Source: Escherichia coli (GTDB lineage Bacteria; Pseudomonadota; Gammaproteobacteria; Enterobacterales; Enterobacteriaceae). Taken from it: a stretch of DNA of 64,000 nucleotides. The DNA lies in assembly GCF_045037415.1 (NCBI RefSeq), contig NZ_CP173440.1; one strand, 5' to 3'. Below the pieces are notes generated by a model. That model was given only the letters and a program-made list of their open reading frames with translations, ran no database searches and was not told the origin of the DNA. Within the stretch, counting starts at the first letter, position 1. Each line of letters starts with the position of its first letter. A program made the translations under genes and the position numbers. Of the stretch, positions 28,463-29,405 are shown one piece after another.

Positions 28463-29405
28463 GTATTCCCCCCGTGTGCGGGGGTTATCGGCAACCTCAA
28501 TTCCTAATGGCTGTCTAAGGAAAGTATTCCCCCCGTGTGCGGGGGTTATCGGCAGGGTTTGCCCTTTTGCACCGCGCAGCGGTCGTATTCCCCCCGAGTG
28601 CGGGGGTTATCGGAGCAACGTTTCCGGATTATATGGCTGGAACGTGTATTCCCCCCGTGTGCGGGGGTTATCGGTGGTGCTCTCAACCGTCACCCGCTGG
28701 CTGGAAGTATTCCCCCCGTGTGCGGGGGTTATCGGTGGTGTTGTCCACGGTCACCCGCTGGCTGGAAGTATTCCCCCCGCATGCGGGGGTTATCGGGCAC
28801 CCTCACGGATACCTTTTGCACAGTGTTAGTATTCCCCCCGCATGCGGGGGTTATCGCCTTAGAGAAGCAAAAACCCCACCGAGGCAGGGGTATTCCCCCC
28901 GTGTGCGGGGGTTATCGGTTACTTTTTGGCAGTTGGTAAAACACTTTTGCGTATTCCCCCCGCATGCGGGGGTTATCGGCGAAAACGGCAACCTTCATAA
29001 AAACGTCTTTTGTATTCCCCCCGTGTGCGGGGGTTATCGGCCGAGATTGAGTAAAGCAAAGTAACGGCGGTGGTATTCCCCCCGCATGCGGGGGTTATCG
29101 GCAGCGTCTGAACGGACGAAACATCCCTGTTGAGTATTCCCCCGTCTGCGGGGGTTATCGGCGAGCGCTCTCCTGGTAAATCGGTAGCTCGGAGTATTCC
29201 CCCCGCATGCGGGGGTTATCGGGCTGGATTTCCGTCAGTTGGTCAGCTGCTGCTGTATTCCCCCCGTGAGCGGGGGTTATCGGTTCCGGACTCCTGTTTC
29301 CGGCAGTGGATTAAAGTATTCCCCCCGCATGCGGGGGTTAACGGCACTACCAGATCCGAATGGACACCCGTAATGAGTATTCCCCCCGCACGCGGGGGTA
29401 TCGAC
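28463..29405 (+). CRISPR. CRISPR array, 16 repeats (29 bp) and 15 spacers (all 32 bp)
   Basis: Repeat GTATTCCCCCCGTGTGCGGGGGTTATCGG at a strict 61-bp period. The terminal repeat at 29377 is degenerate, so the leader is the 65 bp at 28398-28462 next to csf2. One repeat (29134) is 28 bp. Confidence 0.95.

Follow-up and report, generated by a model that had tools for sequence, protein, structure and literature searches.

Within a 64,000-nucleotide (nt) stretch of Escherichia coli DNA, contig NZ_CP173440.1 of assembly GCF_045037415.1 and hereafter the window, a CRISPR array of type IV-A3 occupies positions 28463..29404 of the plus strand. Two of its spacers, numbers 4 and 5, are nearly identical, and the loops of its repeats vary; both features had been singled out by an earlier note made from the letters alone, and their origin is the subject of this report. 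The array is directly preceded by a complete operon in the order csf1-cas6-dinG-csf3-csf2, whose five genes were all recognized by the IV-A3 models of PADLOC, with E values from 1e-52 to 1e-262. The cas8-like csf1 (23423..24214; typeIV_Cas8 model Csf1_2_IVA3, E = 1.8e-122; Csf1gr8, E = 5.5e-151) is followed by cas6, or csf5, whose product cuts the repeat hairpin (24211..24783; Cas6_0_IVA3, E = 7.8e-86), and by the helicase gene dinG, or csf4 (24753..26660; Csf4_0_IVA, E = 1.1e-262). The operon is completed by csf3, or cas5 (26654..27361; typeIV_Cas5, E = 7.2e-125), and csf2, or cas7 (27366..28397; Csf2_1_IVA3, E = 6e-151), all on the same strand as the array.

Between csf2 and the first repeat lies an AT-rich leader (28398..28462, plus strand). 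Leader and first repeat are found together in 441 plasmids of PLSDB, and positions 28406-28490 are letter-identical to the string of partial leader and repeat given for the model plasmid p1530 by Benz et al. A promoter scan of the leader and array found nothing and was uninformative. Neither Cas1 nor Cas2 was found among the ten open reading frames (ORFs) scanned on the flanks of the array; the Cas1_IIIb model gave a single match, on the reverse-transcriptase ORF of a group II intron. The locus has the testable defining features of the type IV-A3 systems of Klebsiella, with the absence of cas1 and cas2 checked near the array.

The array consists of 16 repeats of 29 nt (or 28 nt plus a G derived from the protospacer-adjacent motif, PAM) and 15 spacers, each of exactly 32 nt, with a period of 61 nt except for one step of 60 nt. 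The consensus of the 29-nt hairpin repeat is GTATTCCCCCCGTGTGCGGGGGTTATCGG, and its loop occupies repeat positions 13-16. Repeats R1, R2, R4, R5, R8 and R10 carry the loop TGTG, and R6, R7, R9, R11, R13 and R15 the loop CATG. Four repeats have loops of their own, AGTG (R3), TCTG together with one lost C (R12), TGAG (R14) and CACG (R16, the degenerate terminal repeat). The two main types and these singletons had been listed correctly in the earlier note, which overlooked the terminal C of R7 and the TTAACGG segment of R15. Its statement that the main types alternate holds for the older part of the array, but the five leader-proximal repeats are all of the TGTG type.

The closest matches to the array are found on conjugative IncFIB/IncHI1B plasmids of Klebsiella (MOBH/MPF_F, 200-430 kb). 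The exact array of the window is not in PLSDB, where the best match reaches 98.2% (ON081623). Deletion of a single unit, s16, from the 17-repeat array of CP040726 and CP031372 would yield it.

The spacer pair and its target

Spacer 4 (28675..28706) and spacer 5 (28736..28767), both read on the plus strand, differ at positions 6, 8, 11 and 14 and agree at the other 28 of 32. The near-identity reported earlier is real, with four differences rather than about five, and it cannot be a matter of chance. No second copy of either spacer was found in the window or in 100 shuffles, and there is no self-targeting, as the protospacer is absent from the rest of the window. Errors of sequencing or assembly, which might have produced both the near-identical spacers and the odd repeats, are excluded by recurrence and keep next to no probability. 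The pair is present with the same loop variants in six independently sequenced plasmid records; the pair and the singleton repeats (AGTG, TCTG with the C deletion, and TGAG) recur in ON081623, CP132632, CP034201, CP040726 and CP031372, and an exact spacer 5 is found in approximately 52 PLSDB records.

Searches of PLSDB with the two spacers returned several hundred IV-A3 arrays and, in addition, small plasmids (4.5-15 kb) found in Klebsiella, Raoultella and E. coli, which are typed as ColRNAI and non-mobilizable. On these plasmids the protospacer is the last 32 nt but 12 of a 222-nt gene that encodes the 73-amino-acid (aa) protein WP_016162091.1. It ends 4 nt ahead of the start codon of the downstream gene, the product of which is a 295-aa, weakly XerC-like tyrosine recombinase (E = 1e-5, far under the curated cutoff). 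Spacer 4, which represents an allele here called W4, matches the 3' end of the 73-aa gene exactly. Spacer 5, or W5, matches the same protospacer with one mismatch, at position 17, to V3, the commonest allele. The two spacers therefore share one site, and the possibility raised earlier that they might map to unrelated targets is discarded.

The site is preceded by AAAG in 35 of 35 target loci, in keeping with the motifs of IV-A3 for interference (NAAG) and for acquisition (AAG); this check of the PAM covered the protospacer of spacers 4 and 5 among the window's 15 spacers. Both spacers have the sequence of the coding strand of the 73-aa gene, so that their CRISPR RNA (crRNA) would pair with the template strand. 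No family of NCBIfam or Pfam matched the 73-aa protein significantly; the best scores were to the helix-turn-helix (HTH) region of IS6 transposases (E = 0.005) and to Slx4 (E = 0.034). The protein is very common, being listed in 8508 blocks of the sequence collection. Contrary to what might be expected for IV-A3, the target of spacers 4 and 5 is not a gene of a conjugative plasmid, and it sits on plasmids that PLSDB types as non-mobilizable.

The spacer family is present in about 375 of the approximately 441 PLSDB arrays. Three other spacers of related arrays, s48 (a truncated unit of 27 nt), s52 and s57, have their matches on these small plasmids as well, 220-580 nt upstream of the protospacer (target loci L001-L003 and L018-L049), which makes this family of small ColE1-like plasmids a repeated target. 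Two of the three have flanks other than AAG, AAAC for s52 and TATG for s57. The small-plasmid module was also seen inside a replicon of 314 kb (target locus L021; GCA_030480585.1, CP129533.1, 313,674 bp), where it comprises the 73-aa gene, the recombinase-like gene, a gene of 208-232 aa, an HTH gene and rop. Cointegration of a ColE1-like plasmid into a large one is evidently possible, and IV-A3 would then target the large plasmid.

All four differences between spacers 4 and 5 are synonymous in exactly one of the six reading frames, and that frame is the gene's own (VLSTVTRWLE). Positions 8, 11 and 14 are codon wobble positions, and position 6 is the first base of a leucine codon (CTC to TTG). 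When substitutions were placed at random in spacer 4, the probability that all were synonymous was p = 0.005 for four changes and p = 0.0002 for six. Plasmids that carry different alleles of the protospacer encode the same protein accession.

Four versions of the spacer were counted across 23 related arrays that had been parsed with a stepwise fuzzy parser. W4 is found in the window and in many arrays, and W5 in the lineage of the window. Sister arrays carry V3, which is W5 with a T at position 17, and V4, which is V3 with a C at position 2. W4, V3 and V4 stand in tandem in CP089883, CP083071 and AP026421, in that order from the leader side to the older side, and subsets of the series are found in other arrays. 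Among the 35 target loci the natural alleles were V3 in 19, V4 in 11, W4 in four (spacer 4 being exact in L001, L003, L028 and L042) and a W4-like variant in one. Each of W4, V3 and V4 is thus an exact match to a circulating allele with the same PAM, which argues strongly that one site was captured on three separate occasions. At all four positions at which it differs from spacer 4, spacer 5 has the bases of the natural alleles V3 and V4.

The pair might instead have arisen by tandem duplication of a single repeat-spacer unit, the copies then drifting apart by point mutation. Block duplication is known in this family of arrays, and position 17 of spacer 5 matches no sampled allele, which makes some mutation within the array likely. 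Duplication followed by divergence is nevertheless very improbable as the origin of the pair, as random drift would have had to produce four changes all synonymous in the frame of the target, three of them at wobble positions and the fourth at the first base of a leucine codon, and to arrive at the V3/V4 base each time. Moreover, the block that is duplicated in two of the arrays has identical, undiverged spacer copies. These two arrays, L056 (NZ_CP113193.1) and L057 (CP144327.1), have a CATG first repeat and carry the block of spacers 14 and 15 twice, separated by s71; block duplication or recombination between arrays must therefore occur in the family. Of the two origins proposed in the earlier note, acquisition from variant alleles of one conserved plasmid gene is borne out, by a shared protospacer, synonymous differences and circulating alleles. 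The other, duplication and divergence, is left with one probable in-array mutation in spacer 5. As to whether both alleles circulate, a check proposed in that note, W4 is found exactly; spacer 5 itself has no exact match and lies one base from V3.

Repeat loops and the history of the array

Every loop variant of the window folds into an unchanged stem of 6 bp (five C-G pairs and a closing G-C pair) with a loop of 4 nt, and the energy of the hairpin varies only from -11.8 to -12.3 kcal/mol. This includes repeat 12 (29134..29161, plus strand), in which the run of C is one base shorter; the missing C is unpaired in the predicted fold, and the 6-bp stem is intact. Among the 23 parsed arrays there are 34 distinct repeat sequences with 12 different tetraloops and few changes in the stem.

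The loop of the repeat upstream of a given spacer is retained from one plasmid to another. The repeat 12 variant, for example, precedes spacer 12 in all six other parsed arrays in which spacer 12 follows spacer 11. In L056 and L057 the variant repeat stands before an additional spacer, s69, and the repeat ahead of spacer 12 has the loop TATG. Comparison of the arrays, which the earlier note had proposed for reconstructing gain and loss, revealed deletions of units in addition to the tandem allelic series. All shared units in the sample that occur with two different loops are explained either by a deletion junction to a different upstream repeat (s25, s47 and W13) or by a single point change, from TGTG to AGTG at W3 and from TGTG to TGAG at W14. 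Repeat 3 (28585..28613, plus strand, AGTG) is in the derived state, the spacer-3 unit having TGTG in eight other arrays, and repeat 14 (29255..29283, plus strand, TGAG) is likewise derived, its unit having TGTG in L010 and L050.

Of the 23 parsed arrays, 21 begin with a TGTG repeat, and loops of the TGTG type are carried by the newest 2-10 repeats. Among the 441 PLSDB arrays, 7 match the leader joined to a CATG first repeat exactly, and about 413 match it with two mismatches, the TGTG form. In two of the arrays that begin with CATG, the two newest spacers are flanked by CATG, and runs of rare loops exist, such as CTTG three times consecutively in L010. The loop of a new repeat is therefore taken over from the first one. 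Each acquisition would copy the leader-proximal repeat, its loop included, and deletions between repeats would then shuffle the loops and sometimes reset the first repeat.

The change from TGTG to CATG could also have arisen repeatedly in the older repeats by quasipalindrome correction, in which a template switch turns CCCCCGCATGCGGGGG into a perfect palindrome of 16 nt in one step. Such a mechanism would account for a change that affects two adjacent bases and yields a perfect palindrome, as well as for leader-proximal repeats that are all of the TGTG type where older ones are mostly CATG. We consider it unlikely all the same. No shared unit in the 23 arrays is polymorphic for TGTG and CATG beyond what deletion junctions explain. 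The identical CTTG loops of L010 and the CATG loops that flank new spacers where the first repeat is CATG both indicate inheritance from the first repeat. As the main source of the two types quasipalindrome correction was rejected, since deletion junctions and inheritance cover every case.

Loops are inherited together with their spacers, and the stem is conserved. The loop differences are best read as neutral changes in the 4-nt loop, and the mixture of TGTG and CATG repeats at the older end as a record of the array's history. That Cas6 tolerates changes in the loop, as the earlier note proposed, is plausible, given the unchanged stem and the 12 tetraloops retained in the 23 arrays. We regard the loop variants as neutral lineage markers for the history of the array, with no pointer to new biochemistry.

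Three further repeats depart from the consensus outside the loop. Repeat 7 (28829..28857, plus strand) ends in C instead of G. As this terminal base derives from the PAM, spacer 7 (unit 28829-28889) was probably captured beside a motif other than AAG; among the 23 arrays, 2 of 66 distinct 33-nt units start with C. Repeat 15 (29316..29344, plus strand, CATG) has TTAACGG in place of TTATCGG in the 7 nt from which the 5' tag of the crRNA of spacer 15 is made. Fourteen repeats of this sequence were counted in the parsed arrays, most of which have spacer 15 as their oldest. The degenerate terminal repeat (29377..29404, plus strand), with the loop CACG, has lost one T.

Downstream of the array, a group II intron (29771-31588) lies between the array end and umuDC. 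Its first part, 29771-29996, matches domains D1-D4 of Rfam RF02005 (186.6 bits), and its ORF (30101-31588) encodes a reverse transcriptase/maturase of 495 aa. The ORFs at 31674-32096 and 32096-33367 have lengths equal to those annotated for umuD and umuC in relatives. In pNDM-MAR, CP141558, CP089883 and others umuD directly follows the array, which makes the intron a lineage-specific insertion. A query of 1.2 kb (28300-29500) matched 3139 PLSDB records, of which approximately 441 have the IV-A3 leader and first repeat. The query therefore contains sequence outside the array that is far more widespread among plasmids than the CRISPR locus itself.

Spacer 5 and the repeated capture of one site

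The target of the pair, its PAM, the synonymy of the differences and the existence of the alleles are observed directly. We are fairly confident of the reading as a whole, namely that this is a IV-A3 array in which spacers 4 and 5 were captured separately from alleles of one small-plasmid gene, and in which the loops are neutral and inherited.

Several points weigh against this account. The exact protospacer of spacer 5 was not found in about 115 target loci, and parsimony chooses among its possible origins, which are mutation in the array, an unsampled allele and a chimera of W4 and V3. Three captures of one site among the approximately 181 AAG sites of a 6.9-kb target plasmid, 16 of which have AA at the spacer end, would seldom result from even sampling of the sites and need either a hotspot or selection. 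The protospacer also does not stand out in diversity: its window has a summed pi of 1.66, the median window 1.50, and windows in the recombinase gene reach 3.1-3.4 (sliding windows over the 35 loci). With respect to the loops, neither Cas6 nor the crRNA hairpin could be modelled in the cryo-electron microscopy structure of IV-A3.

Most likely, spacer 5 is the V3 spacer with a single change from T to C at position 17 that occurred in the array, V4 having been lost. Alternatively, it may have been acquired independently from a genuine plasmid allele (TGGTGTTGTCCACGGTCACC...) absent from the loci sampled, a course of events that we judge rather improbable. A recombinant plasmid allele of this kind is plausible, as the C at position 17 is present in the W4 family of alleles, and of the 8508 blocks in which the protein is listed only 25 contigs were read in all, 10 of the contigs encoding WP_016162091.1 being read for the exact protospacer. 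Against it stands the failure of every search to find such an allele. PLSDB, searched with 53 nt of context, gave 77 small plasmids and a best match of 98.1%, with no exact match; 5,426 E. coli genomes yielded six matching plasmids, none exact; a metagenome scan in which position 17 was left free gave 22 contigs, none exact; and none was exact among 13 further loci drawn from PLSDB matches and from contigs encoding the identical protein. In addition, spacer 5 holds the slot that V3 and V4 occupy in sister arrays, between W4 and s16, which fits descent from V3.

What the two spacers would do can be judged from published assays. In a study of IV-A3 in genome editing (Nucleic Acids Research (NAR) 2025, PMC12714566), the main target protospacer began with TCGTGTTGTCCACGG, and its targeting led to a drop in transformation of about 1000-fold; this protospacer, pTarget1, is allele V4. 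In the same study targeting was lost when PAM-proximal positions 1-2 were mismatched, and single mismatches elsewhere were tolerated. By this rule the difference at position 2 means that V3 and V4 cannot stand in for each other, and the array of the window should miss plasmids with the V4 allele. A mismatch at position 17 is tolerated under the same rule, so W5 should still act on V3 plasmids. Spacer 4 would thus cover the W4 allele and spacer 5 the V3 plasmids. Coverage of V3 by spacer 4 as well is doubtful: the two differ at positions 6, 8, 11, 14 and 17, and Cepaite et al. reported strong defects in IV-A3 binding when base pairs 13-17 were mismatched (and likewise for the blocks 19-23 and 25-29). 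The complex would bind 4 nt upstream of the start codon of the recombinase gene, where it would either block expression of the genes downstream or destabilize the small plasmid. We infer the activity of these crRNAs, and their effect on small plasmids, from the published assays.

An acquisition hotspot, selection for a site at which binding is harmful, and priming-like re-acquisition are all possible causes of the repeated capture. Within the 222-nt gene the synonymous differences between L001 and L018 are concentrated in the protospacer, with six of 11 differences, and this is the most variable part of the gene. Diversifying selection, or an arms race driven by escape, was considered and set aside, as the protospacer is no outlier in diversity beside the neighbouring recombinase gene.

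We put forward only tentatively the broader proposal that the tandem series, V4, then V3 or W5, then W4, records a running conflict between IV-A3 megaplasmids and small ColE1-like plasmids. Synonymous substitutions in the half of the protospacer nearest the PAM, one of them at position 2, where a mismatch abolishes targeting, would have let the plasmids escape, and the site would have been captured again, through a hotspot or a priming-like process, with borrowed type I-E machinery. If true, it would be natural evidence of repeated spacer updating in a CRISPR type that has no adaptation genes of its own, and it would mean that IV-A3 polices small non-conjugative plasmids besides conjugative ones.

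Comparison with known type IV-A3 systems

Type IV-A3 systems are of clinical relevance, as they are carried by multidrug-resistance and virulence plasmids of Klebsiella. The p1530-type systems of Klebsiella IncHI1B/IncFIB plasmids (bioRxiv 10.1101/2023.06.23.546257; PMC7434947; PMC6965323) have the same gene order and the same Cas families as the window, and share with it an identical leader and first repeat, repeats of 29 nt, spacers of 32 nt and an AAG/NAAG PAM. Interference guided by crRNA and dependent on DinG has been shown for near-identical IV-A3 systems. The polymorphism of the loop has also been published: Newire et al. 2020 (PMC7434947) described a repeat logo that "wobbles" at two loop positions and is tolerated by the predicted stem-loop.

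Three other spacers of the window, spacer 10 (29041-29072), spacer 12 (29162-29193, as its reverse complement) and spacer 14 (29284-29315), are identical to entries of Kamruzzaman and Iredell 2020 (PMC6965323). In that study the target of spacer 10 was a DUF1367 gene found in 111 K. pneumoniae chromosomes, that of spacer 12 a hypothetical chromosomal gene of 139 strains, and that of spacer 14 the traL gene of 457 CRISPR-negative plasmids.

IV-A3 lacks Cas1-Cas2 of its own and, according to published work, borrows the adaptation enzymes of the host's type I-E system. In acquisition of the type I-E style, the G of the AAG motif becomes the last base of the repeat (Benz et al., bioRxiv 10.1101/2023.06.23.546257), and 64 of the 66 distinct units in the parsed arrays start with G, as a PAM-derived G predicts. 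The arrays also fit the leader-proximal insertion, with duplication of the first repeat, that is characteristic of type I-E adaptation.

The spacer family itself has served as a published test target. In the IV-A3 system of K. pneumoniae b1533, the subject of the NAR 2025 study, the first spacer has the TCGTGTTGTCCACGG start and corresponds to V4 of the same family; it was used to map the PAM and the tolerance of mismatches. The window differs from b1533 in that it lacks V4 and has W4 and W5 instead. The array, its loop polymorphism and its spacer family are thus already known, and the feature is real but ordinary. In the IV-A3 literature examined, which stresses conjugative-plasmid targets, we found no discussion of a target on small ColE1-like plasmids or of a tandem allelic series; one paper names "integration" genes among the targets. 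The addition made here is a small one, a class of target, the non-mobilizable ColE1-like plasmids, that has been little stressed for IV-A3. The allelic series, if it did result from escape and re-acquisition, would document in nature how a CRISPR system that has no Cas1-Cas2 of its own keeps pace with its targets. Both the small-plasmid target and the allelic series are details within a known system, the IV-A3 of Klebsiella plasmids.

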